Of a stretch of DNA of 64,000 nt, positions 19,141 through 41,552 are shown piece by piece. Location: NCBI RefSeq assembly GCF_022045235.1, contig NW_027266343.1, forward strand, positions 51,488,134 to 51,552,133. The letters are read 5' to 3'. Position 1 is the stretch's first letter. The number at the start of each line of letters is the position of its first letter. A model generated the notes under the pieces. The model was not told the DNA's origin, made no database searches, and was given only the letters and a program-made list of their open reading frames with translations. A program made the position numbers and the translations under genes. The stretch is from Haliotis cracherodii. Taxonomy: Eukaryota.

Positions 19141-19383
19141 GAAACGACAGCAGCTTTTTATCCTAGTTTCCTTTCTATGAAAGGGTCTTGTACCGATGTA
19201 GAAAACAGTACAGGAATAACCGTACAAAAAGCGGAGTGGCAATTATATACGTTCACAGAGATCTGGAAGTTCCGACGTGAACGAAAGTAAAACAACAGCT
19301 TCTTTAATTTAATTAGCTCAGTTATCAAGTGTTATCAAAGTTGCATCAAAAGAGAAAAAGGTATCACATTTTGTAATACATTG

Positions 19384-19478: not shown

Positions 19479-20171
19479 ACTCAAGGAAACATACGGTCCT
19501 TGAAATATCGGCAATCGGGAATGTAAGATCATGACAAAATAAGAACAGTCACACAAGCCTGTTAAAATAACTCCTAAACAACAAAGGGAAGCAATCCGCA
19601 AAAGTATTGGGTTGGACATTTAGAAGTTAGAAGAATGTAAAGACATGAAACTTTTGGCTACAAAAGTTCTTTATTCTTTGTCACGGCTGTTCACAAATAC
19701 TTTTTTATCATTTCATCAGGACGGTTTTGAGGAGGAAAATCAATCAAAAAGTTGTAATCCGTTACAGGTTTAATGTCAGCAAACACGGATTTGACAAGGT
19801 CCTTAAGCGAGTATTGATTCACCAGAAGCCACGAAACTGTACAAACAGGGAATCTTACCGTTTCTTTGGTCTAAAACTCATTTGTCATATTTATCACATT
19901 CCATAAAACCACGACAGGAAATCCTGACACAATGGTAGTCAATATTGTCAATAATAAAACATGATGTTGGTGTGAACAAGCAATGCAACAGTGAGAGGAT
20001 CAATGTTTCTCTGTGGTTATGAAGATTGTCATTTAATGTCTCCGTGATACAAGGTACATCTTGATCGTATAAATAATATTGCAAAAATGGTAACAAAACA
20101 TAACACAATGATCTTATTGATAAAATCATTATTGCTAAATGTTATGGTTATCTAAGACTCAATTATCGCAA

Positions 20172-23105: not shown

Positions 23106-23365
23106 TCAAAGCATATCCATTTCAACGGTGGAGTTTAACTCCACACCTTCTGAAACAGTGTGGTTGGATAGAGAAGATTTTGTCAAGGAAGGCATAAAAG
23201 GCAGCTTTGCAATGAGTGGCAGCCTGTGGTAGATACGCGGCAGGAAGTACCATCCATAGGCATCTTGGGCGGAAATAATGTTGTAGTTATCTCCCTTCCC
23301 GTGTTTGACACGTGACACATTTTGGTTCTTCCGCCAAGTGACAAGACCCCTATCTTCCGGTGTTC
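23106..23365 (-). CDS. SLC23A-like: SLC23-family transporter, terminal coding exon 11 (GTPEDRGLVTWRKNQ...YGWYFLPRIYHRLPL...; TGA at 23106-23108)
   Basis: Acceptor ctattttcag|GAACACC. The translation aligns to the SVCT2 C-terminal tail [34 protein letters not shown]. ORF track 23106..23318. Total CDS is 1827 bp, about 608 aa. Confidence 0.85.
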
Positions 23366-24098
23366 CTGAAAATAGAAAGAACCGTGTTGAAGTGTTTTGT
23401 TTGCTTCACGCCGTAGTCCGGGTTTACCACGGCTGCCTATAAATCGTGGCCAGGCAGACCAGTGGTTGAAAAAAATAGCATCGGGACACTATGACACGCA
23501 ATCAGTCAAGTCACTGTCCGACCCCATTCAACCCCATCTTACTCAATGGTAAGCTGACCACCTACTTTTATCGAGTACCGATGACACCTGATCCACTGCC
23601 AATGAATAGTCATGTCCAGAAAATGAGTGCCACGGTACAGTAGCTCACCTGGGTATGTAATTTAAAGTGTCAACAAAGACTTGTCAAACGATCCTGCCAG
23701 CATTGAGTTTCCTATATTTCAGAATAAATACTCTGGACTAACACCTTTTTAAGAGGAGAAGCCGAGAGAGCCGAAAGTGCATTTTTGAGAATTTCGAGGT
23801 TTAGAAACTCTGAAGGTCAACTGAAGGTCAAAATGTAAAATGTCGTGAGATCGGAACGTATGTGTTGCTCCCCACTACAAAGAAAATTCCAAAATGCATG
23901 ACATTTTGAAATAAACAGGTTGAGAAGAGGCAGTAAGAAGTTACAACCTTCAGATGGGTCAAAGGTCAAATCAAGGTCAAATTGTAAAACATCGCAAAAG
24001 CGGGACATATGTGGAACCCACAACTGACCACACATGGACCACATTCCATTGAATTTTGAAAAGATGTGGCTGAGGGGGGGTGGGGGGTGGGGGGGGTT

Positions 24099-24190
24099 TA
24101 CAATGTGTGAAGCCCATTTCTGGTGTCCCCGCCGTGATATTGCTGGAATATTACTAAAAGCGGTGTAAAACCATACTCACTCACTCACTT
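24099..24190 (+). mobile_element. SINE family B, 5'-truncated, preceded by a G-rich run
   Basis: tacaatgtgtgaagcccatttctggtgtccccgccgtgatattgctgg...actcactcactcac. Confidence 0.7.
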
Positions 24191-24486
24191 TTCAAAATGG
24201 TCAACGTGATTTTCAGTCATATAGCTTTCAGTCATATAGTGTCAGGATATTAGCTTTCAAAGCTAAAGCTTTCATTGGGTAAGGTCACGGGTTATCTCCA
24301 ATTCAACTGTTAATAATACTATCAGCCTTTGTGCCCATTCAATTACTATTTAATTCTCCTCTAAACCTTCTCCTGCTAACCGTACAGTCGTGGGCCTGGT
24401 CTGACTCGGAATTACTGAGGGATTTACGGTCAAAAATAAAACTTAACAGATAATCCCCACCAAATTCATACATTTCAGCACTTTTT

Positions 24487-24870
24487 GGACATCCTCTGTG
24501 GTCTCGTGGTAGAGCGTCCGTTCGAAGAGCGGAAGATCCGATGTTCGATCCCCGGCCGCGTCACACCAAATGACGTTAAAAGATGGTACTTGTTGTTTAC
24601 CAGACCCGTGAAGATTCCGGGGTAGAATAGGTCTTCAGCAACCCATACTTGCCGTAAAAGGCGACTATGCTTGTCGTAAAAGGCGACTAACAGGATCGGG
24701 TGGTCAGGCTCGCTGACTTGGTTGATATATGTCATCGATCCCAATTGCGTGGATCGATGCTCATGATGTCAATCACTGGATTGTCTGATCAAGACTCGAT
24801 TATTTTACAGACCGCCGACATATAGCTGGAATATTGCTGAGTGCGGCGTTAAACAACAAACAGAATAAAT
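24487..24870 (+). mobile_element. SINE family C (tRNA-like head + ~250 bp body + aaacaacaaac tail), apparently full length
   Basis: The head tggtctcgtggtagagcgtccgttcgaagagcggaag...gttcgatccccggccgcgtcacacca has a B-box. The body is shared with 13 other copies. The tail is gcggcgttaaacaacaaac. Confidence 0.75.
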
Positions 24871-25166
24871 GTTGTTAACCTGTCTGGGACTCGGCATTAA
24901 GGGTCTAAAACAAGGACTTGTCAGCTCGGAGTCGGTATAGTGTGTCTGAGCGGGGTATTCATGTCAAACTGCGGCATGGTATCTCAGTGAGCTAGCACTA
25001 TAAATCGACATCAGTCCGGACAAGTACAAAAACATGCAATAATCTTGGACGCGACGTTAAACCCAGTTTCACCTCCCCTCCCCTTTTTCTCCGTCCGATC
25101 AATTTTGACAACGCCAGCCATAAGATGTACTTAATGCATGTAGGTTAAACAAAACAACCTCCATAC

Positions 25167-25262
25167 CTTTAACTGTGGTGTCGAGGACTATGGACAAAAG
25201 TCCACCAACAAACATGGGTGTTCCCAAAGCTACTTTCAGCACCCCGTCAACTTCAGCAACAC
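25167..25262 (-). CDS. SLC23A-like: SLC23-family transporter, exon 10 (GVAEVDGVLKVALGTPMFVGGLLSIVLDTTVK)
   Basis: Acceptor ttattgtag| and donor TTAAAG|gtatgg. The span is 96 bp, phase 1 to 1. The translation aligns to SVCT2 [30 protein letters not shown]. Confidence 0.85.
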
Positions 25263-25686
25263 CTACAATAAGCGAGAGATGGACACTTATGTCAAGACGA
25301 ACATAATGTCAACAAAATTTCCTCTCCCCCCTTAGGAAGTGTAATACAGTATAGTTATGTTAACTAAATTAGTTAAAGATCATGAAATAGTTCCGGGCAT
25401 AGCTATACTTTATTACACTACACATGGGGGTTGACCTTGTGGTTTATTAGAGATGGATTTCAAATCTAATTTGTAATAAACTGTTCCGCAAAATGAAAAC
25501 CCTTGAACAGGGAGGTTCAATTAAGAGACAACGCACGGTTTTAATAAAAAAAACCATCAACACTTAAAATATATTATTATATTATCCGGTCAGTGTGTGA
25601 TTATCCATAATCCAATGCAGTAATATGTAGGATTTAAATTTAAGTTTTTATATCAACTTGCTTCGGTTTAATCACATTACTCGAAA

Positions 25687-25879
25687 GTGGGTTCGACTCC
25701 CGGTTCGCCCCGATTATGTGTCTAGGTTTGTCAGCACCATACCCGTGCTCGTGGGATTCACCGAAGTGGTAAACGTCTGAGACCTGCATCACTTCGGGCT
25801 TTCCACATTAAGCTGACACGCCACGATATAACTGAAATACTGTTAAAAGCGGCGTTAAACCCAACTCACTCACTCACTC
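25687..25879 (+). mobile_element. SINE family A, 5'-truncated
   Basis: Starts inside the B-box region. TSD attactcgaaa flanks both ends. Confidence 0.8.
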
Positions 25880-26989
25880 ATTACTCGAAACGTTCCACAA
25901 AAGAAAAGTGTGGCCGGGCTAACATATGCAAACATAGCCCATGTGCTGTGTCGCTGGCAAATAATTGTTAGTTGAGTTTTTTTGTACCCTGCAAGATGCA
26001 TCTTTGCTTCATCACTAACGTGTAAGCAGGCAGGAACTGCAAGACATGAAATGCTACACTAAACGTGTTGGATGCTCTAAAAGATACCGTAACTGATTTG
26101 AATCGACGGCCTGGGGTGTGAAATGAAATGGGTGGGATGAACACGGCGGGGGAAGAGCAACGGTTGTTGTGCTTGATGGCAGTATGTTGCTAAATGCCCT
26201 ACGATGAGCAACGGGTGTTTGTGCCCTCAAGAAACTGTTCACAGATTACTCGTCCTTGTATCCAGAGATATACATTATTCCAAGGGCACCAACGTTTTAA
26301 AAAAGCTGTGTGGTTCACCTGTGGAGAGCATTTCCAAATCTGTGACCAAAATGATGTCCGACGCAATTCCATATTTTGTGACTGCAGGTGAACAATTCAC
26401 GTGTACTTGCATGTGTTTATGACGCTGCATCGGTACACCTGGTGCCATGAACACATGTTTATGATAAAATCGGAATCTGGTTTCATGAGAGATTTCATAT
26501 GTTAGTGGATATGGTTTTGTCTCTTTTGTAATATTGTAGCATTTGATCAGGACAGAGGTCAAACTGTTTGAGAAATATATTTTCATTTGACATGTCGATT
26601 TGACTAACAATGGCCCATGTTATTACTCTTCCTTTAACGAATGTATGACGTATAAAGTTATAGCACTGCTTCCAAAATAATCCTGTACATTCCAACTCAT
26701 AAATACTGAAGGATCAAGATTTACATGGTTTGGGGGAGTGTCGTATTTCTACTCACACATTCAGAAACGACTTGTTTTTCGTTATCCACACATGGTGTTG
26801 CCTGAAATATGCTGTTTGCAAATGGTGGTTAATACGAACGAATCAATATGCCTTGTTTGCCAAAACAGTTGGGTTTACCGATGTCATGACTGTTTATAGT
26901 TGGCTTTCGCCGAAATCATTATTGCATAAATGGATGAGTTTCAACTCCAAGACATATTAGTCATCAGAAAACAAGAATTGTATGTGTAC

Positions 26990-27263
26990 CTGTATCAATG
27001 AAGTCACTATGTCTGTCCACCCACTCAGGGAGGAATATTCCAAAAAATAACGACACTCCAAGTATTGTCATATTTCTGGACGAGTTCAAGTTGACATGGC
27101 TGAGGGTGGACAGGCCAATGGCCACGAGCATTCCGCTGAGGACGACCATAGTACCAGCTAGTGTCGGATCCGGAACGGTTGCTATGGCAGCACCAAATTT
27201 ACCGAAAACCGCCATCAATACAAGGATAACGCCACAGCACAGCATTACGGATCGACTCGCGGT
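26990..27263 (-). CDS. SLC23A-like: SLC23-family transporter, exon 9 (TASRSVMLCCGVILVLMAVFGKFGAAIATVPDP...VNLNSSRNMTILGVSLFFGIFLPEWVD...)
   Basis: Acceptor ttttccag|ACCGCG and donor GATACAG|gtacac. The translation aligns to SVCT2 [32 protein letters not shown]...[26 protein letters not shown]. ORF track 26964..27245. Confidence 0.9.
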
Positions 27264-27345
27264 CTGGAAAATAGGAAAGGATCAAATTAGTAGATTTCTT
27301 TTGGTAACGACATCCATATTATTTCTGTTTTTGTTATCTCAATAA

Positions 27346-27487
27346 GTGAGTGAGTGAGTTAGCATGTTTTTTCACCGCTATTGGCACCATTCCGGCAATA
27401 TCATGGCGGGGAACATTGTACCCATGTAGGGAATCGAACCCGGTTCTTCGGCGCGACGGGGGAACGCTTTAACCACTAGGCTACATC
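27346..27487 (-). mobile_element. SINE family B in the SLC23 intron between exons 8 and 9
   Basis: TSD tatctcaat on both sides. Confidence 0.8.
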
Positions 27488-28370
27488 CCCGACCCCCTCA
27501 TCTCAATGTTCAGCTTCAGAGAGATCTAGTTGTCGAAAGAAACAAAATGAAACTAAAACACAAAAAATACCTTTGGTTAAAAAAAACTAACAGCTTGATT
27601 GTTGTTTATTCTTCAAAACGATTTCGTCAACAATTTAAATTCAATATTAATAAGTAATTAATCCGCTCCTAAATTAAATCAACAATCAAATCGGAAAATA
27701 ACAAATGTTCACTGCACACTAGAACGTTGGGAAGAGCTTGTTGCTATGTGTGTAGAATTTAACCAAAAAAAACCATTCTATTTGTTCATATCTTATTTAA
27801 ACATCCGACAAATCATGTTTGGTCATCCTTTGTAACAATTGATGACAATCATGAACTCAAATCAACTGTTTAATATATGGCAAGGATTGGGCAAATGTAA
27901 ATGGACAAACGCATGCACAAAAGTTCTTTCTGGGAATAAATTGCTCACGAAAATTAATTTGAAAGCCAAACATTCAATTTTACAGTTAGACATCATGATA
28001 GAAAGGTCGTACACAGGACAAGTAAGGTAGCTTCGCCTCTGGATTCTGAAACACCAGGTGTTCTGTGGGTCAAGCGAGTTATGTCAGCCAAGACCGTTTG
28101 TTACTCAAAATAGGATCATGAAACAGTCCATAACATAAATGTTCACGTGTGAATTATCGCTAAACGATAGCATACAAATTCATGTATTAAGTAAAAACGA
28201 TTATTGTGTAAATAAATGTTAGCACCGCCTCCGATCTTGGTGCAAATTTATTTTTGTCACAAAACCGCTACACGGACATTTTACGTAAATTTACTGGTAC
28301 TGCATTAGATGTGCATAAGATAACTTACTTATTTCCCCAACATTTTCAACAGATCACTAACCATTGCACC

Positions 28371-28625
28371 TGTTAAGATCCGGGGTAGAATAGGTCTTCA
28401 GCAACCCACGCTTGCCGTCAAAGGCGACTATGCGTGTCGTAAAAGGCGGTTAACGGGATCGGGTGGTCAGGCTCGCTGACTTTGTTGTAGCATGTCATCG
28501 TATCCCAACTGCGTAGATCGATGCTCATGGTGCCAGTCACTGGATTGTCTTGTCCAAACTCAATTATTTACAGACCGCCGTCATATAGCTGTAATATTGC
28601 TGAGTGGGGTGTTAAACAGAAGAAA
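28371..28625 (+). mobile_element. SINE family C in the SLC23 intron, 12 bp from the exon-8 donor
   Basis: Body consensus. The copy ends at 28625 and the exon starts at 28637. Confidence 0.75.
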
Positions 28626-28636
28626 TAGCTCACTAA

Positions 28637-28890
28637 CCTTTGACACAGATATCGCTGCGATATTTCCACTGTATGACGTTGTAGCATGTCCCGTGCCTAT
28701 CGCTCCGCCAAGTAGTCCGCAAAGACCTTCCACCAATATGCCTCTGTTGACAGCGTGATCAGGCGGTGGGTCGATTTGACATGCTTTCGCGGTGGCAAAA
28801 TAGTCCCCCACAGATTCAATCATGGACGCGCAAAAGGCAGACAGGAATCCAACAAAAACTGCTGGACTAAATAATGGTAGTCCAAACTGA
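28637..28890 (-). CDS. SLC23A-like: SLC23-family transporter, exon 8 (GQFGLPLFSPAVFVGFLSAFCASMIESVGDYFATAKACQIDPPPDHAVNRGILVEGLCGLLGGAIGTGHATTSYSGNIAAISVSK)
   Basis: Acceptor ctattgcag| and donor CAAAG|gttagt. The span is 254 bp, phase 1 to 0. It carries the conserved SLC23 signature around IESIGDYYACARL...PPPIHAINRGI...[21 protein letters not shown]. Confidence 0.9.
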
Positions 28891-28929
28891 CCTGCAATAG
28901 AACACAGAAGTTGAAGGGTTAAAGATGTT

Positions 28930-29050
28930 GACGAGGATTTATAAGAATGAGGCACCAGGCAGAGTGAGTTCGAATCCTCGATGGGTCTCAACCCCAAAAA
29001 GTACGAGAATCCGTACTTACAAAGAAAGTGTTATCCTAAATATAACACGG
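28930..29050 (+). mobile_element. SINE family D fragment in an SLC23 intron
   Basis: gaggcaccaggcagagtgagttcgaatcctcgatgggtctcaaccccaaaaagtacgagaatccgtac. Confidence 0.55.
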
Positions 29051-29184
29051 GTTACATGTGTTCACTCTCTCAATGGCATTGTGTGTTCACAGCTTTCCGC
29101 CATGGGAGCCGTGCCCATTTACACTTGTCAGAGGGGTACACAAAGTACGTGATCTAGACTAGTTGTCGGACTTTCATTTTCTGT

Positions 29185-29350
29185 TGAAGCCTCGGTGGCT
29201 GGGTGGGTTAGATAGCTGACCTTGTGTGCTGGCGATTAGGTGCCCCACTCTGGTAGTGTGGGTTCGAATCCCGGATGGGATCATCCCCTAAAACTACTAG
29301 AATCTGTACTTCACTGAGAAAGTGTTATCCCAAACATAATATTTGTTGTA
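29185..29350 (+). mobile_element. SINE family D, most complete copy
   Basis: ggctgggtgggttagatagctgacc...gggttcgaatcccggatgggatcatcccctaaaactactagaatctgtacttcactgagaaagtgttatcccaaacataatatttgtt. Confidence 0.6.
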
Positions 29351-29607
29351 ATTTAATGGTAACGTCGCAACAAATGCCTACATTGAAAATGTGCCGGTTT
29401 CTTATCTTTACGACGATGCAAACTGTATGGGAATTGTAAATCTAAATTGTGTACATATGCCATTCGTAGGTAGTTTTCTTCCATTAAATAAAGGTCGCCT
29501 AGATATAGCTGGTATCGTGTGTAACCTGTATTAAAATGCAACAACAACGAAAAGATTCTATATATTCTGTTATACAATGTTTGGTAGACAAGGCTTCACC
29601 TGGATAC

Positions 29608-29891
29608 TGGGGGCACGGGTGGCCCAGTCGTCTAAGGCGCTGCGGATCGCTGTGCAGAGTTGCGCCCCTTGGACACGCAAGAAAACCGTGGGTTCGAATC
29701 CAGGTTCGCCCCGATTATGTTTCTAGGTTTGTCAGCACCATACCCGTGCTCGTGGGTTTCGCCGAAGTGGTAAACGTCTGAGACCTGCGTCACTTCGGGC
29801 TTTCCTCCCACATTAAGCTGACATGTCGCGATATAACTGTAATATTGTTAAAAGCGGCGTTAAACCCAACTCACTCACTCACTCACTCACT
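29608..29891 (+). mobile_element. SINE family A inserted at the exon-7 splice donor of the SLC23-like gene
   Basis: Full-length copy. The 11-bp TSD cacctggatac at 29597-29607 and 29892-29902 contains the exon-7 end (minus strand GTATCCAG|gtg). Confidence 0.85.
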
Positions 29892-29894
29892 CAC

Positions 29895-30051
29895 CTGGAT
29901 ACGGGAAGTAGAACCAGGGCGTGCGCTCTATCAGCAACATCTTCACGTCCGTCCTTGCCTTGTAGCGGATGTTATCGGGGTCGTTTGGGAAGACGTCGGT
30001 GATGGTGAGGATGGCGGAGATAGCCCACATCACCAGGATGCTCAACAGAAC
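29895..30051 (-). CDS. SLC23A-like: SLC23-family transporter, exon 7 (VLLSILVMWAISAILTITDVFPNDPDNIRYKARTDVKMLLIERTPWFYFPYP)
   Basis: Acceptor tttgcag|GTTCTG. The donor CCAG|gtgagtgagtgag is supplied by the tail of an inserted SINE-A. The translation aligns to SVCT2 [51 protein letters not shown]. Confidence 0.85.
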
Positions 30052-30135
30052 CTGCAAAGTGTCACACTTTTTTTCAGTCAGGAAGGTAATATGTGTTTAT
30101 ATATGCTGAGAAGTTCTTTCAGAGGCGACTATCAG

Positions 30136-30378
30136 TGGAATCCCATGTATTATCTGTGCAGAGTTGTCTCCCTTTGTGCACGCAGAAACCTATGGCAGTG
30201 GGTTCGAAGCCCGGTTCGCCACGATAATGCTCCTAGGTTTGTCAGCACCGTACCCGTGCTCGTAATCAAAATGGTAAACGTCTGACACCTGCATCGCTTC
30301 GTGTTTTCCTCCCACGCTGTGAAATACTGCCCAAAACGTTAAATCCAACTCACTCACTCACTCACTCACACACACAGA
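30136..30378 (+). mobile_element. SINE family A, 5'-truncated and diverged
   Basis: Homology runs from gtgcagagttg to the (cact)n(ca)n tail. Confidence 0.65.
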
Positions 30379-30904
30379 CTAATGAATAAGTAAGTTTGTG
30401 TTCTGCGGAATAGCCTATAATATGTTTTTTTATACATCGATGGCGTTGACGACTTCTTTTACCCCGAGTATTTGCGCTGCATTTTTTTACCATCTCTTCT
30501 GAACGTCTAGGTTTATTCTCTTGCAGAGTCTTTGGCGATGCTAAGTTTGAACTTTGAGTAATTGAATTGAAATTACACCCATTGCCAACTTGTTTACATG
30601 CGTTTTTATATTTTGGCGTAATTTAAATGTGAAAAATATCAAGTATATTGTTAAAGACACACTTAATTCCGTGATTTAATTAAGACATTTCTTCACAAAA
30701 ATAAGAAGGGGACATTTCTTTTATTTACATTTCCGCGAACACCTGGTCTAACCACTGACTTTCAATTCAAGTATTTTTGTTTCGCTACTTGAGTGGGCCA
30801 TCCGTCTTTGGAACAAAATCAGGTCAACAACAAATAGTTTCAATTGACGATTGTTGCAATTGCTGACGTTTGTTTTGTTTTAGTTTTTTTTATTTGGTTT
30901 TCTT

Positions 30905-31160
30905 TGTGTGTTTAACGCCGCAGTCAACAATATTTCATCTATATGACGGCGGTCTGTAAATAATCGAGTCTGGACCAGACAATCCAGTGACTGACACCAT
31001 GAGCATCGATCTACGCAGTTGGGATACGATGACATGCATCAACAAAGTCAGCGAGCCTGACCACCCGATCCCGTTAGCCGCTTTTTACGACACGCATATT
31101 CGCCTTTGACGGCTAGCATGGGTTGCTGAAGACCTATTCTATCCCGGATCTTCCCGGGCC
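30905..31160 (-). mobile_element. SINE family C in an SLC23 intron
   Basis: Body consensus. Confidence 0.75.
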
Positions 31161-31505
31161 AATTGCTGGCGTAGCTTCATTACATTGAATATGAAAAATG
31201 CTAAATGTTTGAATTTGTTTAGAAGATATAAGAATATTGTAGTCGGATACGTAGAATGTTTGCTTGGGATATATCGTAGACGAAGATCGCCTCACATTTG
31301 AACAGAAAGTGATTTTCATTCTCGATATAACACATTCTACAGTCTATTATCCCTAGGGATATGTAAATATTATACGAATACGGCCATGTGCAGACAAAAG
31401 CACGTGCAAATCATGCTGATTGAACGAGATGCACGAGATTAAACATATTTTTCCTGAATGTGACGTTTATTTTAGTTTTACAATGAATGATAAACACAAA
31501 CATAC

Positions 31506-31617
31506 CGGGAAGAGTTCAAATAACGGTAGATAGCTTCGTTTCTTCTTTCCCCTTCTCGGAAGTGGAATTTTGACATGTGGAATGTACAAGATGAAGATGA
31601 GAAGTAATGCTATCCCA
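31506..31617 (-). CDS. SLC23A-like: SLC23-family transporter, exon 6 (GIALLLIFILYIPHVKIPLPRRGKKKRSYLPLFELFP)
   Basis: Acceptor tgtttcag| and donor CCCG|gtatgt. Phase is 2 to 0. The translation aligns to SVCT2 [44 protein letters not shown]. ORF track 31467..31694. Confidence 0.85.
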
Positions 31618-31671
31618 CTGAAACAGAAAACATTAGTCAGATATGAGAGATGTTTGAACGATCTACGTAAA

Positions 31672-31775
31672 TTGGATACGATGACATGCATCAACCAAGT
31701 CTTCGAGCCTGACCACCCGAACTTTTAATCGCCTCTTACGACAAGCGCGGGTTGCTGAAGGTTAATTCTAACAAC
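31672..31775 (-). mobile_element. SINE family C fragment
   Basis: gatacgatgacatgcatcaaccaagtc...gggttgctgaag. Confidence 0.55.
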
Positions 31776-32385
31776 ATGACTGATGCGTATCTGTATAATA
31801 TCCTCCATGCCATAACGGACAAAAAATTGATGAACGTAACAGGAACGCACATTATAAATTCTTTTGTTCCCTTATTGCAGTAGAAACCAAAGTCATTACT
31901 CCGCACAGCAGACAATGTACAAACGTGTGAAAAGTGGCATTGCAATCACGATAAGATTGTAGTGAAATCAAGTCATTTGTTTCCGGATATTAATCCCAAA
32001 AGTTCAAAAATAAGAGAGTTAAAATGCCTCAAGATACGCATAAATACCAAACCGGAACTTTGGTACACCAAACGTCAAATCATCGAGAGTGTTTGCCACA
32101 TAATTTTTTATATATCTGCCAAGAAATAATATAATGAATGTTTACTCTTCTTCAAAATCTACAATAAACCGCATTAACTCGAGATATCCTTTCATTGTAT
32201 TTTCATAGTCCCTAAAGGATTTCTATCGATACGATTGGCGAAAATCGACTCTTTTGTCTTGTTCTTTTTTAATTGATGTGCTTCTTTAACTGGCTGTCAC
32301 AAAGACATTTAGTATTACCGTAGAACTGCATTTCAAAATGATATTTTAAAGATATTTTAACGTTATGTGAAATTTTCATACAAAC

Positions 32386-32567
32386 CCGAAAGAAATTTCC
32401 CAAGAAGGCCTGGATTGCGCTATTGGGATCTTGTAGAGGGAGATCCCTATGAGGGCAATGGTTGGGGCGACTGTGAGCGGCCCGATGTAACGGAGAAGCA
32501 CCCCAACTAAACCAGTAGAGCCTATCAGAATCTCCAGTATTGAAGCAGTCATCAAACTCCCCGCCAA
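32386..32567 (-). CDS. SLC23A-like: SLC23-family transporter, exon 5 (LAGSLMTASILEILIGSTGLVGVLLRYIGPLTVAPTIALIGISLY...)
   Basis: Acceptor ttttcag|TTGGCG and donor TTCGG|gtttgt. The translation aligns to SVCT2 [43 protein letters not shown]. ORF track 32376..32567. Confidence 0.85.
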
Positions 32568-33254
32568 CTGAAAAATATGACAATCTCATTAAAATAAGAT
32601 ATTTACTTCCGACTCCGAGTCAGATGTCAAGTTTATAAAACGTTTCGGCTTGCCTGGTACGGACTAACGATACCTCTCTTCGTCAACATCTGGCAAAGCC
32701 CATAGAGGTCACGTTAGATGAACCCTGAACGAACTTTGACCTACAGATCAAAAAGAAGGATGCTTGGGGATTTTAACCAGAGTTTTCAGCAGGCTTTATA
32801 AAACCCTCCGTCTTCATTTTCAGACTGACGGCCTTGAACGCCGCTTTTTTGGGCAGTTGTAGCAATGTTTGGAAAAGAACAGGGTGTAACAATATTTTTT
32901 TTTTCCTTTCCGAACTCACCGTTTACGTTCGGTTCCGTGATACAGAAGTCAGAAAGTGCTGTTCCGAATGCTTCGCTCGTTTGTACAGAGAATTATAAGC
33001 CGCTATGTAGATTGGTCGAGTAGAATGTTCACCTGATGTGACCCACTTAAAAGGGTTTCTGATATCTTCACAGAGAGTGGTACCGAATCCCAATGCTGAT
33101 TTTAATGGAACGTATCCCAATTTCTGTTAGTTCGTGGAACAAACGTGGGATACTTGTTCTGCCATGTTCTGTCACGGAATGCTTACAGGGCACAATATTG
33201 GACTCGCAAATGTACACACGTGCAATGTAGGTGTACATGTTTCCACTTGCGTGT

Positions 33255-33365
33255 ATCGATGATCATGATATCGACCACTGGATTGTCTGGTGCAGACTTG
33301 ATTATTTACAGACTGAAGTCATATAGCTGGAATATTGCTCAGCGCGCCGTTAAACAACAAACAAA
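33255..33365 (+). mobile_element. SINE family C 3' fragment
   Basis: ctggattgtctggtgcagacttgattatttacagac...gttaaacaacaaac. Confidence 0.6.
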
Positions 33366-33929
33366 ACATGGTTCTGCCCCGTGAGGATTGCGGAATTGCT
33401 CTCATCTTTAGCCACGAAAAAAACACATGGTTGAATGTTTTCTTTTGACAGGCAGTTTACTTAAAACAAACTGTATTAATGAATACATTGTAAATTCTTT
33501 GGAGTATTTTGTTCTCAATTTTAAATTGGTATTGTCAAATTGCTTATTGAGATTTTTAAGGAAGCGTCATTTCTGGTGATAGCGCAACATTATTTCCCCT
33601 GCATAATTGCACGTATGTGCTATCAAAATAAAAGTATGTTATCAACAAGGTTTTATCGATTTTTGTTTTCTCGGATTATTTGAGTATATGTTAATTTGAA
33701 TGTTAAAGTACTTGAAATGGTCAGTTTTCAATGTACACTTGTTGATATCGTGCTAATATTTCGCTGTAAACTGACAGGTCTTTTAACTATAAAACTGTTC
33801 TCAGATACGGGCAATGTGACGTTAACTTGTTACTCAATCACTCACATATAGCTAGAAGACTGCTAAAGGTACCGTTAAACAACAAACCAAAGAAACACAT
33901 TGTCTCATTTGTCTCTTTGGATCAAGAAA

Positions 33930-34225
33930 TTTACATATAATTTAAACGACAAAACCCTTTCCATACCCAAAAGAAATATCTGCAAAAAGAAAAGTCAATT
34001 GTACGATTCCGACGATATCATGAGCATGTGTTTATGAATCACTATAAAAAAGTAACTATACCAAGTGTTCGCAAAAAGGTGAGCGTATCCTGACCAATCG
34101 GTCGCACCTGTCATAAAAAAAAACATGCAAAGGCAAGTCAATTGTTAAACACGCGAACATATTGTACTAGTCAAAATAGGGAATTGCACTGAACATCATG
34201 GTTGTCACTGATGCGTCATATTTGG
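33930..34225 (-). repeat. R5 interspersed repeat copy in an SLC23 intron, abutting a SINE-C
   Basis: Collinear with 4455-4760. Confidence 0.5.
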
Positions 34226-34227
34226 TT

Positions 34228-34487
34228 GGTTGGTTTGTTGTTTAACGCCGAACGCAATATTCCAGCTATATGACGGCGGTTTGTAAATAATCGAGTCTGG
34301 ACCAGACAATCCAGTGATTAATATCATGAGCATCGATCCACGCATTTGGGATCGATGTCGTGCATCAACCAAGTCAGAGAGCCTGACCACCCGATCCCGT
34401 TAGTCGCCTTTTACGACAAGCATAGTCACCTTTTACGGCAAGCATTCGTTGCTGAAGACCTATTCTACCCCGGAATCTTCACAGGTC
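34228..34487 (-). mobile_element. SINE family C in an SLC23 intron
   Basis: Body consensus. Confidence 0.75.
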
Positions 34488-34621
34488 TCGTCACTTCAAA
34501 TTTGGAAATGTCCCCTACATGTCTACCATAAAACCTTTTGAAAGCTTTGCTGACCTTTAAGCAATGTATCGGTTTCAGTTCTGCCTTCTCTAATCAAAAC
34601 ATTTACACACATTCAATGCAC

Positions 34622-34722
34622 CTGTTTCAATTTCTCTTCTTCAGACAGCAAGGCCAGGTCTGATGTTGCCGAACCATTGAGACTGGACGTGTTGCCGCCT
34701 TGGGCCATACTGGTTAAATTGC
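34622..34722 (-). CDS. SLC23A-like: SLC23-family transporter, exon 4 (extracellular loop with NLTS/NTS/NGS N-glycosylation sequons ...EEEKLKQ)
   Basis: Acceptor ttttcaag| and donor AAACAG|gtgcat. Only one frame is open and it joins phases 1 to 0. The position matches the variable glycosylated loop of SVCTs. Confidence 0.7.
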
Positions 34723-34804
34723 CTTGAAAACGATCGTGTACAAGCATCAATATTGATATTTACGGTAAGGTGAAAAAACGTTCTACAAAGTACTCAAACA
34801 AGAA

Positions 34805-34988
34805 GTGATGCAGGTCTCAGATGTTTACCACTTCAGTGAAACCCACGAGCACGGGTATGGTGCTGACAAACCTAGAAACATAATGGGGGCGTATCGGGAT
34901 TCGAACCCACAATCATAGGTTTCTGGCGTGCCCAAGGGACGCAACTCTGCACAGCGAATCGCGGCGCCATTGACGACTGGGCCACCCG
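34805..34988 (-). mobile_element. SINE family A, 3'-truncated, minus orientation
   Basis: Reverse complement of the head ggggcacgggtggcccagtcg...gtggtaaacatctgagacc. Confidence 0.75.
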
Positions 34989-35236
34989 TGCCCCCCTTTC
35001 GTAAATAGAAAATCTGAAATGTGTAACCTATAATTGTACGTGTCATTATTTCATAATGTCTTAACCGAAAATGGAAGGGAATAATGCACTTTTTTCTGTA
35101 AATATTAGCTTCCGCGGTTATGCGGGCGTCAAATCAGCTGTTTCAACGTGGTTGTTGTAATTAGAAACCTCAGACTGAAAGATCAGAATCGAATATTTTC
35201 TAAACTCATGGCATGCGTGGAAAGGTAATATGTAAT

Positions 35237-35336
35237 GGGGTCGGTGAGGTAGCCTAGTGGTTGAAGCTATCGGTCGTCACGCCGAAGACCCGGGTTCGGT
35301 TCCCCACATGGGTACAATGTATGAAGCCAATTTCTG

Positions 35337-35371
<35 letters not shown>

Positions 35372-35415
35372 ATATTGCTGGGATATCGCTAAAAGCGGCG
35401 TATAACCATACTCAC
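35237..35415 (+). mobile_element. SINE family B carrying an internal poly-C(30) expansion, about 115 bp from SLC23 exon 3
   Basis: Head ggggtcggtgaggtagcctagtggttgaagc...; the C-run at 35340-35372 replaces the usual cccccgccg. Confidence 0.75.
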
Positions 35416-35529
35416 CATATAAGTAATGTTTTTTAGAAAATATTCGGGTTCAATATGATTTTTTCGAGTATCAAATACTCAATAACACCTGCAATTCCGT
35501 AACTCTTTCCCACTCACTCACTCACTCAC

Positions 35530-35615
35530 CATCAGGGCATTTCCACTCAGGGTTGTTCTGCAGGGCTAGAAGTGCCGGAAAGAAGGAGGCTGATGGCCCT
35601 TGATAGATCGGCAGT
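35530..35615 (-). CDS. SLC23A-like: SLC23-family transporter, exon 3 (RLPIYQGPSASFFPALLALQNNPEWKCPD)
   Basis: Acceptor ttttccag|; the donor CCTGATG|gtgagtgagtgagtgagtggg lies inside a (GTGA)n run. Phase continuity with exons 2 and 4 holds. The translation aligns to SVCT2 [27 protein letters not shown]. Confidence 0.8.
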
Positions 35616-35684
35616 CTGGAAAATATGTCCAATGGGTCAGTCACGCTGTTAATATAAATCTTGTTAACATGACTCCTACCCGTG

Positions 35685-35940
35685 AAGATCCGGGGTAGAA
35701 TAGGTCTTCAGCAACCCATGCTTGCCGTAAAAGGCGACTATGCTTGTCGTAAAAGGCGACTAACGGGATCGGGTGGTCAAGCTCGCTGACTTGGTTGATG
35801 CATGTCATCCCACTTGCGTGGATCGATGCTCATGATATTAATCACTGGATTGTCTGGTCCAGACTCGATTATTTACAAACCGCCGTCATATAGCTGGAAT
35901 AGTGCTGAGTGCGGCGTTAACCAACAAACCATCTAACCTT
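35685..35940 (+). mobile_element. SINE family C in an SLC23 intron
   Basis: Body consensus. Confidence 0.75.
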
Positions 35941-36660
35941 AGACATTTTCGTGTCTCTGGTCTGAGGCAATAGGAACTAAATCGACAAAACCCTTTCCAA
36001 GACATGGAAGGACATGCTTCGAGGACAGCATGAGTTCCACAGAGTAGCGTAAAAAGATAACGGTCGTGTTTTCTAATCAAGGACACGAAGACGCCTAACA
36101 CAGGCATTGATTGACGACAGGCAATGTCACAGTTTCCTTGGTCATAGTTTGTATTTACAATACACGGATACAGCTTTTTGAGAAAAGTGCATTTTGTGAT
36201 TTTACAATTTTTGCAACTATCTATATGAACGAATGTTTTATTGTTCAGAATGGACCATTTTGTTTTCATATGGTAAACTCAAAGTCAGTTATCGCTTTTT
36301 GAGACAATGTTAGTTCTATTCAGTGGGATCGAACCTGCAACTCTCGTATCTGTAGTCTGGTGAGTGAACCACTAGGCTAAAGAGCTGCTGATAAATCACA
36401 ATGCTTTTAAGAATCTCATTTTTTCAAGCACATGTTCGCCAGCACGAGATATATTACGTCCGTTTCCTGAGGTTCAAGGGGAGTGTTGGAATATAATTTC
36501 TTTTGATAAAGTTGTTTCAGATTTGTTACGGTTTATAAGACATATATTCTCTCAGGTTTGGTTAATAATATAAACACTAGGGGCCTGCCATCGGGTTTGT
36601 CCATCTCCCCCGTGTTGACATTGTTAACCAAACCCTCGGGTTTGCCCTTTATCTTCTCAC

Positions 36661-36818
36661 CTGATACCGACAACCGTTTGAAGTAGCGTGGTTAAGCCAC
36701 TCATCAGCAGTGTTGAGGAAAGTAGCTTCGATCTGATTGGACTGTCATAAGCTGCGCACACAGCGTCTGAGATGATGAAGGCAGTGGCTACCGTGAAGGC
36801 AAGGTTCATCATGATGTG
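36661..36818 (-). CDS. SLC23A-like: SLC23-family transporter, exon 2 (HIMMNLAFTVATAFIISDAVCAAYD...LLQTVVGIR)
   Basis: Acceptor ccccttgcag| and donor |gtgagaag were read from the sequence. Phase is 0 to 2. The translation aligns to SVCT2 [23 protein letters not shown]...TLLQTTFGCR. Confidence 0.85.
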
Positions 36819-37074
36819 CTGCAAGGGGAAGGAAGTACCAACATCACTTGTTTACTTTGTGTTGTGTTTTGGTTTGTTTGTCAACATTTATATCACGGCG
36901 GTCTCCAAATAGTAGTATGGGTCAGACAAACAGTGATCGATATTATGATCAACGTGCCTCTCTGTCGTGAACGACGACGCACAATCAGCAAAGTTACAGA
37001 GCTTGGTTGGTAAATAGCTAGGACATAGTAGGGACTTAACGCATAATTGCCACTGATGGCGCCACGATCGAGCA

Positions 37075-37262
37075 ACAATCTGTAAATAATCGAGTCTTGA
37101 TCAGACAATCCAGTTATTGACATCATGTTCATCGATCCACGCAGTTGGGATACGATGACATGCATCAACCAAGTCAGCGAGCCTGACCACCCGTTAGTCG
37201 CCCCTTACGACAAGCAATGGTTACTGAAGACCCCGGATTTTACCCCGGATCTTCACGGGTCT
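37075..37262 (-). mobile_element. SINE family C, truncated
   Basis: Body consensus. Confidence 0.65.
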
Positions 37263-37441
37263 CTCAAGTTTTACATAGTCCCTGCACAAATACATGCTCT
37301 GATATTTTTGTCACCTTATTTTATATCAAATGGAGCAGCTGTTTAGTAAAAACAAATAATCTTATTTCTTTCAGTGTAAAATACACGCATTTTAAGTCTC
37401 TGCCTATGTTAATAATTTCAGTAACTGTGCTGTTTGTTGTT

Positions 37442-37675
37442 TATCGTCGCACTCTGCAATATTCCAGCCATATGATGGCTATCTGTAAATAATCGACCAG
37501 ACAATCCTGTGACTGATATCATGAGCATCTATCTACATAAATGAAATACGATGACATGCATCAACCAAATCATCGAGCCTGACCACTCGATCCCGTTAGT
37601 CGCCTCTTACGACAAGCCAGTAACGGCAAGCATTGGTTGCTGTAGACCTATTCTAACCCGGATCATCACGGGTCA
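37442..37675 (-). mobile_element. SINE family C, 33 bp downstream of SLC23 exon 1
   Basis: Body consensus. The copy ends at 37675 and the exon-1 donor is at 37708. Confidence 0.7.
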
Positions 37676-37708
37676 TCTGATTAATATATAAATAACTTGA
37701 TCCCATAC

Positions 37709-37855
37709 CTGTAAGGCAGCACTGAACAGCACCACACACGGCGGGTTTTGAATCAGGGTATAGTGCAGTCTTTCATCCTCATTGTCAACCAGCTTCTCTA
37801 CTCCTCTGTCAAGATCCAGGTCGTGGCCATTGTTTACTCGCTTCTTGCCAGTCAT
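37709..37855 (-). CDS. SLC23A-like: SLC23-family transporter, coding exon 1 (ATG at 37855; ...NPPCVVLFSAALQ)
   Basis: ATG is preceded by an in-frame TAG; the donor CAG|gtatgg lies at 37708/37707. The translation matches the SVCT N-terminal motif PPWxLCIxLGLQ. The ORF-track entry 37673..37864 starts at a TTG. Confidence 0.8.
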
Positions 37856-37879
37856 GATGATCAACTAATTTCAGCCTTC

Positions 37880-37960
37880 TGAAAATGCATGTGTTTCATG
37901 TAATATACGGCGTTTTATCCATGTCAGAATGATGAGATCTGATTGGTCCACGTGATCTTG
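37880..37960 (-). promoter_or_regulatory. Putative core promoter of the SLC23-like gene (TATA-like tatatta, CCAAT box, CACGTG E-box)
   Basis: On the minus strand: CCAAT at 37942-37946, E-box cacgtg at 37949-37954, and tatatta at 37901-37907, about 50 bp upstream of the ATG. A ttttcag just 5' of the ATG means an upstream non-coding exon cannot be excluded. Confidence 0.3.
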
Positions 37961-38334: not shown

Positions 38335-41276
38335 ATAACCAACTCTCTAATGATGAAGTAAGTCACCAGCTCTCTCCAATGATGAAGTAAGTCACCAACT
38401 CTCTCTAATGATGAAGTAAGTCACCAACTCTCTCTAATGATGAAGTAAGTCACAAACTCTCTCTAATGATGAAGTAAGTCATCCACTCTCTAATGATGAA
38501 GTAAGTCACCAACTCTCTAATGATGAAGTAAGTCACAGCTCTCTCCAATGATGAAGTAAGTCACCAACTCTCTCTAATGATGAAGTAAGTCACCAGCTCT
38601 CTCCAATGATGAAGTAGGTCACCAGCTCTCTCTAATGATGAAGTAAGTCATCCACTCTCTAATGATGAAGTAAGTCACCAACTCTCTAATGATGAAGTAA
38701 GTCATCCACTCTCTAATGATAAAGTAAGTCATCAACTCTCTAATGATGAAGTAGGTCACCAGCGCTCTCCAATGATGAAGTAGGTCACCAGCTCTCTCCA
38801 ATGATGAAGTAGGTCACCAGGTCTCTCTAATGATGAAGTAAATCAACCACTCTCTAATGATGAAGTAAGTCATCAACTCTCTAATGATGAAGCAAGTCAC
38901 CAACTCTCTGTAATGATGAAGTAAGTCACCAACTCTCTCTAATGATGAAGTAAGTCACCAACTCTCTCTAATGATAAAGTAAGTCACCAACTCTCACAAA
39001 TGATAAAGTAAGTCACCAACTCTTTCTTATGATAAAGTAAGTCATCCACTCTCTAATGATGAAGTAAGTCACAACTCTCTAATGATGAAGTAAGTCACCA
39101 ACTCTCTCTAATGATGAAGTAAGTCACCAACTCTCTCCAATGATGAAGTAGGTCACCAGCTCTCTCCAATGATGAAGTAGGTCACCAGCTCTCTCCAATG
39201 ATGAAGTAAGTCAACCACTCTCTAATGATGAAGTAAGTCACCAACTCTCTAATGATGAAGTAAGTCACCAACTCTCTTTAATGATGAAGTAAGTCACCAA
39301 CTCTCTCTAATGATGAAGTAAGTCACCAACTCTCTCTAATGATAAAGTAAGTCACCAACTCTCACAAATGATAAAGTAAGTCACCAACTCTTTCTTATGA
39401 TAAAGTAAATCACCAACACTCTCTAATGATAAAGTAAGTCACCAACTCTCTAATGATGAAGTAAGTCACCAACTCTCTTTAATGATGAAGTAAGTCACCA
39501 ACTCTCTCTAATGAAACAGTAAATAACCAACTCCCTCTTATGATAAAGTAAATAACCAACTCTCTCTAATGAAACAGTAAATAACCAACTCCCACTTATG
39601 ATGAAGTAAGTCACCAACTCTCTCTAATGATGAAGTAAGTCACAAACTCTCTCTAATGATGAAGTAAGTCATCCACTCTCTAATGATGAAGTAAGTCACC
39701 AACTCTCTAATGATGAAGTAAGTCACAGCTCTCTCCAATGATGAAGTAAGTCACCAACTCTCTCTAATGATGAAGTAAGTCACCAGCTCTCTCCAATGAT
39801 GAAGTAGGTCACCAGCTCTCTCTAATGATGAAGTAAGTCATCCACTCTCTAATGATGAAGTAAGTCACCAACTCTCTAATGATGAAGTAAGTCATCCACT
39901 CTCTAATGATAAAGTAAGTCATCAACTCTCTAATGATGAAGTAGGTCACCAGCTCTCTCCAATGATGAAGTAGGTCACCAGCTCTCTCCAATGATGAAGT
40001 AGGTCACCAGCTCTCTCTAATGATGAAGTAAGTCAACCACTCTCTAATGATGAAGTAAGTCACCAACTCTCTAATGATGAAGTAAGTCACCAACTCTCTT
40101 TAATGATGAAGTAAGTCACCAACTCTCTCTAATGATGAAGTAAGTCACCAACTCTCTCTAATGATAAAGTAAGTCACCAACTCTCACAAATGATAAAGTA
40201 AGTCACCAACTCTTTCTTATGATAAAGTAAGTCATCCAGTCTCTAATGATGAAGTAAGTCACCAACTCTCTAATGATGAAGTAAGTCACCAACTCTCTCT
40301 AATGATGAAGTAAGTCACCAACTCTCTCCAATGATGAAGTAGGTCACCAGCTCTCTCCAATGATGAAGTAGGTCACCAGCTCTCTCCAATGATGAAGTAA
40401 GTCAACCACTCTCTAATGATGAAGTAAGTCACCAACTCTCTAATGATGAAGTAAGTCACCAACTCTCTTTAATGATGAAGTAAGTCATCAACTCTCTCTA
40501 ATGATGAAGTAAGTCACCAACTCTCTCTAATGATAAAGTAAGTCACCAACTCTCACAAATGATAAAGTAAGTCACCAACTCTTTCTTATGATAAAGTAAG
40601 TCACCATCTCTCTCCAATGATGAAGTAAGTCACAACTCTCCAATGATGAAGTAAGTCACCAACTCTCTCTAATGATGAAGTAAGTCACCAGCTCTCTCCA
40701 ATGTTGAAGTAGGTCACCAACTCTCTCTAATGATGAAGTAAGTCATCCAGTCTCTAATGATGAAGTAAGTCACCAACTCTCTAATGATGAAGTAAGTCAT
40801 CCACTCTCTAATGATAAAGTAAGTCATCAACTCTCGAACGATGAAGTAAGTCACCAGCTCTCTCCAATGATTAAGTAAGTCACAACTCTCTAATGATGAA
40901 GTAAGTCACCAGCTCTCTCCAATGATGAAGTAGGTCACCAGCTCTCTCTAATGATGAAGTAAGTCATCCACTCTCTAATGATGAAGTAAGTCACCAACTT
41001 TCTAATGATGAAGTAAGTCATCCACTCTCTAATGATGAAGTAAATAACCAACTCCCTCTTATGAAAAATTAAATAACAAACTCTCTCTCATGATGAAGTA
41101 AATTACCAACTCTCTCCTTAGATATAGTAAGTAGCAAACTCTCTCTTATGATAAAGTAAAAAACCAACTCTCTCTAACGAAACAGTAAACAACCAAATCT
41201 TTCTTATGAAAAAAATTAAATAACCAACTTTTTCTCATGAAAAAGTAAATAACCAACTCTCTCTCTCTTATGATAA
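38335..41276. repeat. 29/30-bp satellite (about 100 units, aatgatgaagtaagtcaccaactctctct) with a 1190-bp higher-order repeat
   Basis: 38411 onward equals 39601 onward at an exact 1190-bp offset. ORFs 38619-38801 and 39809-39991 are identical artefacts. There is an inner ~368-bp sub-period (ctcacaaatgataaag at 38993/39361 and 40183/40551). The array continues briefly after the SINE at 41553-41575. Confidence 0.9.
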
Positions 41277-41552
41277 AAGGGGGGGGGGGGGGGCACGGGT
41301 GGCCCAGTCGTCTAAGGCGCCGCGATTCGCGTCCCTTGGGCTCGCCAGAAACCTATGATTGTGGGTTCGAATCCCGGTTCGCCCCAATTATGTTTCTAGG
41401 TTTGTCAGCACCATACCCGTGCTCGTGGGTTTCACCGAAGTGGTAAACGTCTGAGACCTGCATCACTTCGGGCTTTCCTCCCACATTAAGCTGACACGCC
41501 GCGATATAACTGGAATACTGTTAAAAGCGGCGTTAAACCCAACTCACTCACT
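41277..41552 (+). mobile_element. SINE family A inserted into the 30-bp satellite
   Basis: A G-run precedes the head. The satellite unit cttatgataaag is duplicated on both sides as a TSD (41265-41276 and 41553-41564). Confidence 0.85.

Follow-up and report, generated by a model that had tools for sequence, protein, structure and literature searches.

The window analysed here is a stretch of 64,000 nucleotides of Haliotis cracherodii (RefSeq assembly GCF_022045235.1, contig NW_027266343.1, forward-strand positions 51,488,134 to 51,552,133), within which we characterized a gene of the SLC23 transporter family and the short interspersed elements (SINEs) that populate its introns, one of them lying inside the splice donor of exon 7. 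All coordinates below are window positions unless another locus is named. The gene lies on the minus strand, with 11 coding exons distributed from 37855 to 23106 and a coding sequence (CDS) spanning 14,750 bp. The CDS of 1827 nt encodes, in an uninterrupted open reading frame (ORF), 608 amino acids followed by a TGA stop. An exact-sequence look-up showed that RefSeq XP_071090060.1 (‘solute carrier family 23 member 2-like’ [Haliotis cracherodii]) matches the product at every one of its 608 residues; the gene is thus already known and annotated.

The gene model was rebuilt independently of a first-pass annotation that had joined 11 exons into a protein of about 608 residues with GT-AG junctions and consistent codon phases. 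Minus-strand ORF fragments resembling SLC23 proteins were found in colinear order from 37855 to 23106, four of them matching Pfam PF00860 at successive profile positions. A protein search with their rough concatenation returned as best match a 608-residue protein of Haliotis rufescens, followed by many mollusc paralogues. Using tblastn, this protein aligned to the window in 11 ordered segments at ~ 92–100% identity, and the junctions were then read from the sequence. All ten introns are GT-AG with consistent phases, most acceptors being preceded by a pyrimidine-rich stretch. The starting methionine (MTGK/MAGK) is conserved in four Haliotis proteins, with an in-frame stop just upstream. The resulting model and its RefSeq counterpart bore out the earlier reconstruction, meaning that an 11-exon metazoan gene had been exactly rebuilt by a reader without tools. 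The lower boundary then proposed (23106) is indeed where the stop codon ends, while the upper ones (37875 and 37960) do not mark the CDS start, which lies at 37855. Furthermore, the exons are less hidden than first described: only five had been reported as visible ORFs, and all 11 fall inside ORFs of the six-frame listing at a 35-residue threshold.

From the start codon (37855–37853), exon 1 (37709–37855, 147 nt) encodes residues 1–49, including the N37-P38-P39 motif and the Gln (Q49) of the Gln-His motif of transmembrane segment (TMS) 1. Exon 2 (36661–36818, 158 nt) begins in phase 0 between an acceptor ending in ccccttgcag and a gtgaga donor, and exon 3 (35530–35615, 86 nt) carries the TM3 loop RLPIYQGPSASFF and ends at the donor gtgagtgagtgagtg. 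The extracellular loop with its N132, N141 and N146 sequons is encoded by exon 4 (34622–34722, 101 nt). Exons 5 (32386–32567, 182 nt), 6 (31506–31617, 112 nt) and 10 (25167–25262, 96 nt) were delimited by tblastn and their junctions. Exon 7 (29895–30051, 157 nt) has its last 8 nt within a SINE target-site duplication (TSD). Exon 8 (28638–28891, 254 nt) encodes the TMS8 motif ESVGDY, PPPDHAVNRG and the TMS10 signature TTSYSGNIAAISVSK, exon 9 (26990–27263, 274 nt) encodes NSSRN, and exon 11 (23106–23365, 260 nt) includes the TGA stop at 23108–23106.

Protein searches firmly place the predicted product in the NAT/NCS2/SLC23 superfamily, as the first-pass annotation had proposed. The PF00860 profile (Xan_ur_permease) matched residues 44–480 over profile positions 4–386 of 389 with 272.2 bits (cutoff 27, E=7.8e-81), and single exons matched it in colinear order as well. 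Among solved structures, the protein matched human (8jew, E=1.5e-118) and mouse (7ytw, E=8e-118) SVCT1 over residues 32–539, fungal UapA and bacterial UraA giving weaker matches. The alignment to both SVCT1 chains is continuous and, by sequence homology, covers the 14-transmembrane elevator fold with its 7+7 inverted repeat, so that the protein would be a homodimeric secondary carrier of this type. The motifs cited earlier (IESVGDY, PPPDHAVNRG, GTGHATTSYSGNI and NSSRN) are all present, and the putatively N-glycosylated loop was recovered between TM3 and TM4 with three N-x-S/T sequons. Two canonical NAT motifs (Kourkoulou et al. 2018, PMC5972032) were also found, namely the TMS1 Gln-His (Q49-H50 in SAALQHIMM) and the TMS8 E-x-x-G-D (E340-S-V-G-D344). 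For the comparison of residues, the published structure of mouse SVCT1 (PMC10011568) served together with the alignment described above. The three residues whose side chains form the Na1 site in mouse SVCT1 (E341, D345 and S390) are conserved as E340, D344 and S389, and Na+-coupled uptake is therefore predicted; these ligands are not specific to ascorbate carriers. An unusually short N-terminus had also been described, with 49 residues ahead of the PP motif. This figure corresponds to the length of exon 1: the motif stands at residue 38, leaving an N-terminus of 37 residues whose length is within one residue of that of human SVCT1 in the alignment, and the idea of a shortened N-terminus was rejected on this ground and on the conserved starting methionine of the four Haliotis models.

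The TMS10 segment, which carries the specificity signature of the family, departs from the described types. It reads S-Y-S-G-N-I-A-A-I-S-V-S-K, its final part being G390-N-I-A-A-I-S-V-S-K399. Compared with the canonical NAT motif, it retains the Asn and the Lys, has a Gly at position 1, and shows Ala and Ser where the motif has Gly and Thr. Ascorbate carriers are characterized by S-S-S-P-N-x-G and nucleobase carriers by S/T-F/Y-A/S-Q/E-N-x-G (PMC5972032). The abalone protein shows S-Y-S-G-N-I-A where the mammalian Na+/L-ascorbate cotransporters SVCT1 (SLC23A1; PDB 7ytw, 7yty, 8jew) and SVCT2 have S-S-S-P-N-I-G. Its S-Y-S fits the Thr/Ser-Phe/Tyr-Ala/Ser-Gln/Glu-Asn signature of SVCT4 and rat SNBT1 (SLC23A4), with which it shares Tyr2, Ser3, Asn5 and Lys13, and like the fish proteins with SYSQNIA it has Ala at position 7; it differs from this type by Gly instead of the Gln/Glu clamp at position 4 and by Ser instead of Thr at position 12. 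This likeness was drawn from the published motif and the fish proteins. At the binding site, five of the six residues contacting ascorbate in mouse SVCT1 differ: C62, S117, F119, S389 and P391 correspond to N54, P109, A111, Y388 and G390, and only T66 is kept (T58).

These differences bear directly on the name carried by the gene. As the RefSeq label implies, it could be a true orthologue of SVCT2 (or SVCT1), i.e. a sodium-dependent vitamin C transporter, in line with its similarity to SVCT1 over residues 32–539, its conserved Na1 site, the equivalent of the glycosylated loop and the NSSRN motif. The QH, ExxGD and PPPxHAxNRG motifs are likewise common to it and the mammalian cotransporters, and its N-terminus is about as long as that of SVCT1. 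In addition, the P391A mutant of mouse SVCT1 retains wild-type kinetics (PMC10011568), so the Pro is not strictly required and the Gly at this position does not alone exclude ascorbate. However, Ser389 and Pro391 have been reported to separate ascorbate from nucleobase carriers (PMC5972032, PMC10011568), and both are replaced here, as are S117, F119 and C62. Moreover, the SVCT1/2 clade is reported from vertebrates only, SVCT4 being the animal-wide clade, with lineage-specific expansions (PMC5972032); most fish proteins among the matches listed are themselves of the SVCT4 type. By its residues and by this published distribution, the abalone protein would fall outside the SVCT1/2 clade, and we consider a vitamin C transporter improbable. 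The full-length likeness to SVCT2 noted in the first-pass annotation thus holds at the family level and does not extend to the specificity motif or the ascorbate contacts; ‘SVCT2-like’ reads as a best-hit label only and should not be taken to designate a vitamin C transporter.

Because the specificity motif and five of the six ascorbate contacts differ from the SVCT1/2 type, the cargo is probably other than vitamin C. Judging from the Tyr-containing motif, which resembles that of invertebrate SVCT4-like proteins, it would most likely be nucleobase-related or another small polar solute. Position 4 is a Gly where nucleobase carriers have the Gln/Glu that clamps the substrate and ascorbate carriers have Pro. 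The signature was surveyed across 120 listed homologues, all counts applying to the matches listed. Mollusc paralogues commonly share the variant, with SYSGNIA and SYSGNIG each found in 16 of 121 sequences. The possibility that Gly at position 4 is unique to this gene was rejected, since it is the commonest state among the mollusc paralogues listed. Ten of the 11 fish proteins carry SYSQNIA and the remaining one (P0119) SSSPNIG, a motif that occurs nowhere else among the 120 homologues. It could conceivably be that SYSGN, with Gly in place of Gln, Glu or Pro, is the hallmark of a subfamily of mollusc SLC23 proteins whose substrates form a third class not yet described.

Position 4 is variable well beyond this gene. 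Haliotis paralogues (P0008, P0010 and P0012, as well as P0004, P0006 and P0020) display G, P, S, A, T or N, and at least 11 different residues occur across the molluscs listed. The variant with Pro reads S-Y-T-P-N-I-A, a hybrid combining the Tyr2 of the nucleobase motif with the Pro4 of the ascorbate motif. Such variants are of the ‘transitory’ kind asked about by Kourkoulou et al. (PMC5972032).

The repeats within the gene belong mainly to four dispersed families that were defined by self-comparison of the window, from which consensus sequences were built and labelled F1, F2, F3 and F5; a further family was labelled F6. The four main families account for 41 matches to their consensus sequences in the 64 kb, with elements of 170–293 bp. 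Internal promoter motifs of RNA polymerase III were searched with the consensus TRGCNNAGTGG for the A box and GGTTCGANNCC for the B box. F2 (170 bp) carries both at 11/11 (A box TAGCCTAGTGG, B box GGTTCGATTCC), F3 (293 bp) has an A box at 10/11 (TGGCCCAGTCG) and the B box GGTTCGAATCC, and F5 (183 bp) has a B box only (10/11). F6, a tRNA-derived family with a copy at 11580–11896, has the A box TGGTCTAGTGG and the B box GGTTCGATCCC, and in F1 (254 bp) neither box was found. A 3′ module of ~ 45 bp is common to F1, F2 and F3 and is followed by an (ACTC)n or A/C-rich tail. Together with TSDs of 11–13 bp and empty sites in the sister species, the A and B boxes and this shared module with its microsatellite tails identify the repeats as genuine SINEs.

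One full-length copy of the tRNA-derived F3 family (29609–29894, plus strand, antisense to the gene) lies 0 bp from exon 7, its end coinciding with the first nucleotide of intron 7. Seen on the gene strand, its (ACTC)n tail becomes (GTGA)n and provides positions +5 and +6 of the donor, the sequence running ...CCGTATCCAG|GTGA(GTGA)nGTTGGGTTTAACGCC...CCCGTGCCCCC-A-GTATCCAGGTGA-AGCC. The element is flanked by a 12-bp TSD, GTATCCAGGTGA. The upstream copy (29891–29902, minus strand) comprises the terminal 8 nt of exon 7 and intron positions +1 to +4, and contains the donor in use, CAG|GTGAGT, completed by the SINE with its GT at 29894–29893. The downstream copy (29596–29607, minus strand) holds the ancestral donor CAG|GTGAAG (GT at 29599–29598), which persists 295 bp downstream as a cryptic site. 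Past the end of exon 7 the frame continues as GGT GAG TGA, so that use of the cryptic donor would lead to a TGA stop after two codons; therefore only the upstream donor gives the protein. The insertion is common to H. rufescens and H. cracherodii. Haliotis rubra, the sole source for an empty site, has two copies of exon 7, and one of them shows it as CCGTATCCAG|GTGAAGCCTTCTG, also given as CCGTATCCAG|GTGAAGCCTT. This configuration indicates that an antisense F3 copy integrated between positions +4 and +5 of intron 7, that the 12-bp duplication regenerated the end of exon 7 together with GTGA, and that the (ACTC)n tail then completed a consensus GTGAGT donor from the former GTGAAG, splicing and reading frame surviving the event. 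It represents a clean and datable case of a retroelement fixed in a splice donor with the gene left intact, the donor being rebuilt by the TSD and the microsatellite tail of the SINE.

The same junction offers a hint on how the site was chosen. On the SINE strand, the start of the right-hand TSD (TCAC, 4 nt) carries on the (ACTC)n register of the tail, and such a continuation was seen in all four well-defined F3 insertions, over 4, 3, 2 and 1 nt. This suggests priming on the donor core by tail microhomology, four cases being too few to establish it. We consider it rather doubtful that (ACTC)n-tailed abalone SINEs more generally prime reverse transcription on TCAC/GTGA in this way and so favour antisense insertion at donor cores of the form G|GTGAG. 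If they did, exon 7 would exemplify a genome-wide bias remodelling the 5′ ends of introns, with donors regenerated or improved by the SINE tails. Elsewhere in the gene, the donor of exon 3 (35530–35515) runs on as (GTGA)3, ATG|GTGAGTGAGTGAGTGGG, with no adjoining SINE body and the nearest F2 copy 114 bp away; this repeat could be an old tail remnant or a coincidence.

Conservation in H. rufescens argues for a functional gene at the locus. The orthologue (XP_046343832.2 / XP_048249191.1, locus L001) agrees with this gene in its 11 exons, in their phases and in the splice sites, and also has the F3 copy at the exon 7 donor. Projecting the exon map onto L001 yields XP_046343832.2 exactly, with all splice dinucleotides conserved, and the two proteins align without gaps at 589 of 608 identical residues (96.9%). 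Identity reaches 97.9% in the CDS against ~ 91–93% in flanking intron blocks, and the CDS comparison gives a dS of 0.044, a dN of 0.014 and a dN/dS of 0.32. The intact ORF, the conserved splice sites, this ratio and the higher conservation of exons over introns indicate a functional gene under purifying selection, neither a pseudogene nor a chance chain of ORFs.

A SINE at position +5 of intron 7, 18–20 repeat copies spread over 12.9 kb of intronic DNA and an exon-3-like fragment with an in-frame stop nearby (7061–7142), which shows that pseudogenised pieces of the family exist, could nevertheless be taken as signs of a decaying or non-functional copy for which the RefSeq model would be a computational fiction. 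Against this, the 608-codon frame and 20 of 20 canonical splice dinucleotides are maintained in both species, under the constraint just described. The donor created by the insertion (CAG|GTGAGT) moreover comes nearer to the consensus than its ancestral form CAG|GTGAAG, and the SINE, being shared by the two species, predates their split and has been tolerated ever since, all of which makes a decaying copy highly improbable. The probability that the model is a chance or mis-joined exon chain, such as a merger of two tandem paralogues, is virtually negligible: merging does occur in this family, as in a 55-kb H. rubra model with two exon 7 copies, but here each exon occurs once and in order within 14.75 kb, the alignment to the orthologue is gap-free, the Pfam profile is covered a single time (4–386 of 389) with no segment duplicated or missing, and the sole paralogous trace reported elsewhere in the window is a 97-bp exon-3-like fragment.

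Several points weigh against reading the locus as a functional transporter gene with a SINE-rebuilt exon 7 donor and a cargo other than vitamin C. Exon use, the 5′ untranslated region and expression are deduced from homology and from the RefSeq prediction, itself computational. Besides the activity of the P391A mutant, nucleobase binding by UapA strongly depends on the Gln that is replaced here by Gly (PMC5972032), making the canonical nucleobase binding mode doubtful, and no transport assay of any mollusc SLC23 protein was found in the literature. As for the repeats, ARAGORN and Rfam (gathering thresholds) detected no tRNA-like element over the whole window; only the box motifs point to tRNAs as the source of the SINE heads, and F1 has no recognisable ones. 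Having weighed these, we consider it very probable overall that the locus is a functional H. cracherodii SLC23/NAT transporter gene of 608 residues whose exon 7 donor was rebuilt by a SINE. The gene itself matters little; it is a routine member of the large and expanded SLC23 family of molluscs.

A second set of SLC23 exons was looked for in the window, and only the exon-3-like fragment and a weaker match were found. The fragment (7050–7144, minus strand) is an isolated copy of exon 3 with 16 bp of intron 3, at 83.5% identity over 97 bp, and has an in-frame stop (AIPALQNNPE*KCPDGE); it is probably the relic of a decayed tandem paralogue. The weaker match covers 11 residues at 19485–19517. Two tandem SLC23 copies occur in H. 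rubra and in Haliotis asinina. The 55-kb H. rubra model, labelled ‘LOW QUALITY PROTEIN’ (locus L002, 3001–57881), has its exon 7 copies at 10584–10742 and 54849–55007, and is probably a merger of two tandem paralogues.

Throughout the gene, the census of intronic SINEs gave nine F1, four F3, three F2 and two F5 copies, i.e. 18 copies with at least one per intron, in agreement with the first-pass counts of at least 8, 4, 2 and 2 for its four families. They total 3,492 bp, or 27% of a combined intron length of 12,923 bp. Two further repeats, an F6 element split by a nested F1 and a ~ 280-bp family at 33950–34225, bring the number to 20 copies and the share to ~ 31%, so that the earlier description of the introns as SINE-saturated was overstated. 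Ten copies lie near splice sites, at 0, 19, 35, 41, 62, 68, 79, 83, 102 and 114 bp; the proximity previously noted was real, with the difference that the nearest copy is at 0 bp and not within the range of 12–120 bp then given.

Intron 1 contains a sense F1 35 bp from the exon 1 donor (37434–37673, minus) and a diverged F1 at 79% to the consensus (37079–37260, minus), and intron 2 an antisense F1 62 bp from the exon 3 acceptor (35678–35927, plus). In intron 3, an antisense tRNA-derived F2 (35237–35415, plus) is followed by a sense, 3′-truncated F3 79 bp from the exon 4 acceptor (34802–34995, minus). Intron 4 holds an F1 adjoining the ~ 280-bp repeat (34235–34486, minus) and an F1 fragment (33243–33360, plus), while the F1 fragment of intron 5 (31659–31746, minus) lies 41 bp away from the acceptor of exon 6. 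An F1 (30904–31158, minus) and an old F3 at 76% to the consensus, 102 bp from the exon 7 acceptor (30154–30374, plus), occupy intron 6. Beyond the F3 at its donor, intron 7 has a tRNA-derived F5 (29191–29355, plus) and an F5 fragment 68 bp from the exon 8 acceptor (28960–29079, plus). Intron 8 contains an F1 19 bp from the exon 8 donor (28368–28618, plus) and an old F2 at 75% to the consensus, 83 bp from the exon 9 acceptor (27347–27496, minus), and intron 9 a 5′-truncated F3 (25687–25880, plus). Intron 10 carries nested repeats (24507–25075, plus), with an F1 (24604–24859) inside a ~ 320-bp F6-family element (24507–24597 and 24870–25075), and a 3′ fragment of F2 (24099–24189, plus).

Modular tRNA-derived and ‘LP’ SINEs have been described in gastropods and bivalves, including Haliotis SINEs without a tRNA head (Matetovici et al. 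2016, PMC4758252). The families of the window resemble these mollusc SINEs by their short length, A and B boxes, tails common to differing heads, microsatellite ends and TSDs. They differ in their terminal repeat: the tails reported are (CACCT)n in MESC SINEs of Haliotis and (CACT)n in those of Bathymodiolus, (ACTC)n being unlisted for Haliotis. The labels F1, F2, F3, F5 and F6 are those of this analysis.

The CDS span of H. rufescens (16,855 bp) is 2.1 kb longer than that of H. cracherodii; the range recorded for the H. rufescens gene likewise runs from ATG to stop. The added length is accounted for by no fewer than five additional SINE insertions and an indel of 704 bp, located within the gene or immediately 5′ of it. 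The five insertions have TSDs of 11–13 bp and correspond to empty sites in the window: an F3 ~ 190 bp upstream of the ATG (TATGGCGGGGTAT), an F3 in intron 4 (ATTGCTTAAAG), an F6 nested in the F3 copy at exon 7 (TAATGTGGGAGGA), and, in intron 9, a 5′-truncated F1 (TATTACAAAAG) and an F3 (TCATTTCACACCC). The 704-bp indel, with an A-rich end, lies in H. rufescens intron 8 (L001 20785–21488, against window 28008–28029); it has no clear TSD and may be an insertion or a deletion. H. rufescens also has a longer F1 copy (~ 230 bp) in intron 5, where the window keeps the fragment at 31659–31746. Conversely, the F3 copy at 34802–34995 is confined to the window, the orthologue having ~ 108 bp of unrelated sequence there. 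The five H. rufescens-only insertions with TSDs and empty sites, together with this window-only copy, indicate that the SINE families have been active since the split of black (H. cracherodii) and red (H. rufescens) abalone, the introns having been colonised repeatedly by tRNA-derived SINEs still mobile after it. With at least six presence/absence sites in ~ 15 kb, such insertions are possible phylogenetic or population markers for an endangered abalone.

Upstream of the gene, a ~ 2.9-kb minisatellite (38335–41277, period of ~ 29 or 58 bp, translating as ...YFIIRELVTYFIIREWMTYFIIRE...) begins ~ 480 bp before the SLC23 ATG and would therefore leave limited room for a proximal promoter. Related arrays at 75–84% identity occur upstream of the H. 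rufescens orthologue (L001 3240–4061 and 6928–8744). Further along, an ORF with a reverse-transcriptase-like FADD motif (45018–45995) was found within 45018–46586 on the plus strand, and other long retroelement-like ORFs lie at 9330–9995 and 47618–48217 on the minus strand; they may belong to LINE (long interspersed element) or Penelope-type elements, as candidate partners of the SINEs. Finally, additional minisatellite or tandem blocks (12409–13719, 18469–19242, 42010–43875 and 55330–56218) generate long spurious ORFs on both strands, the tandem block at 12–14 kb showing a strong GC skew of 0.56.

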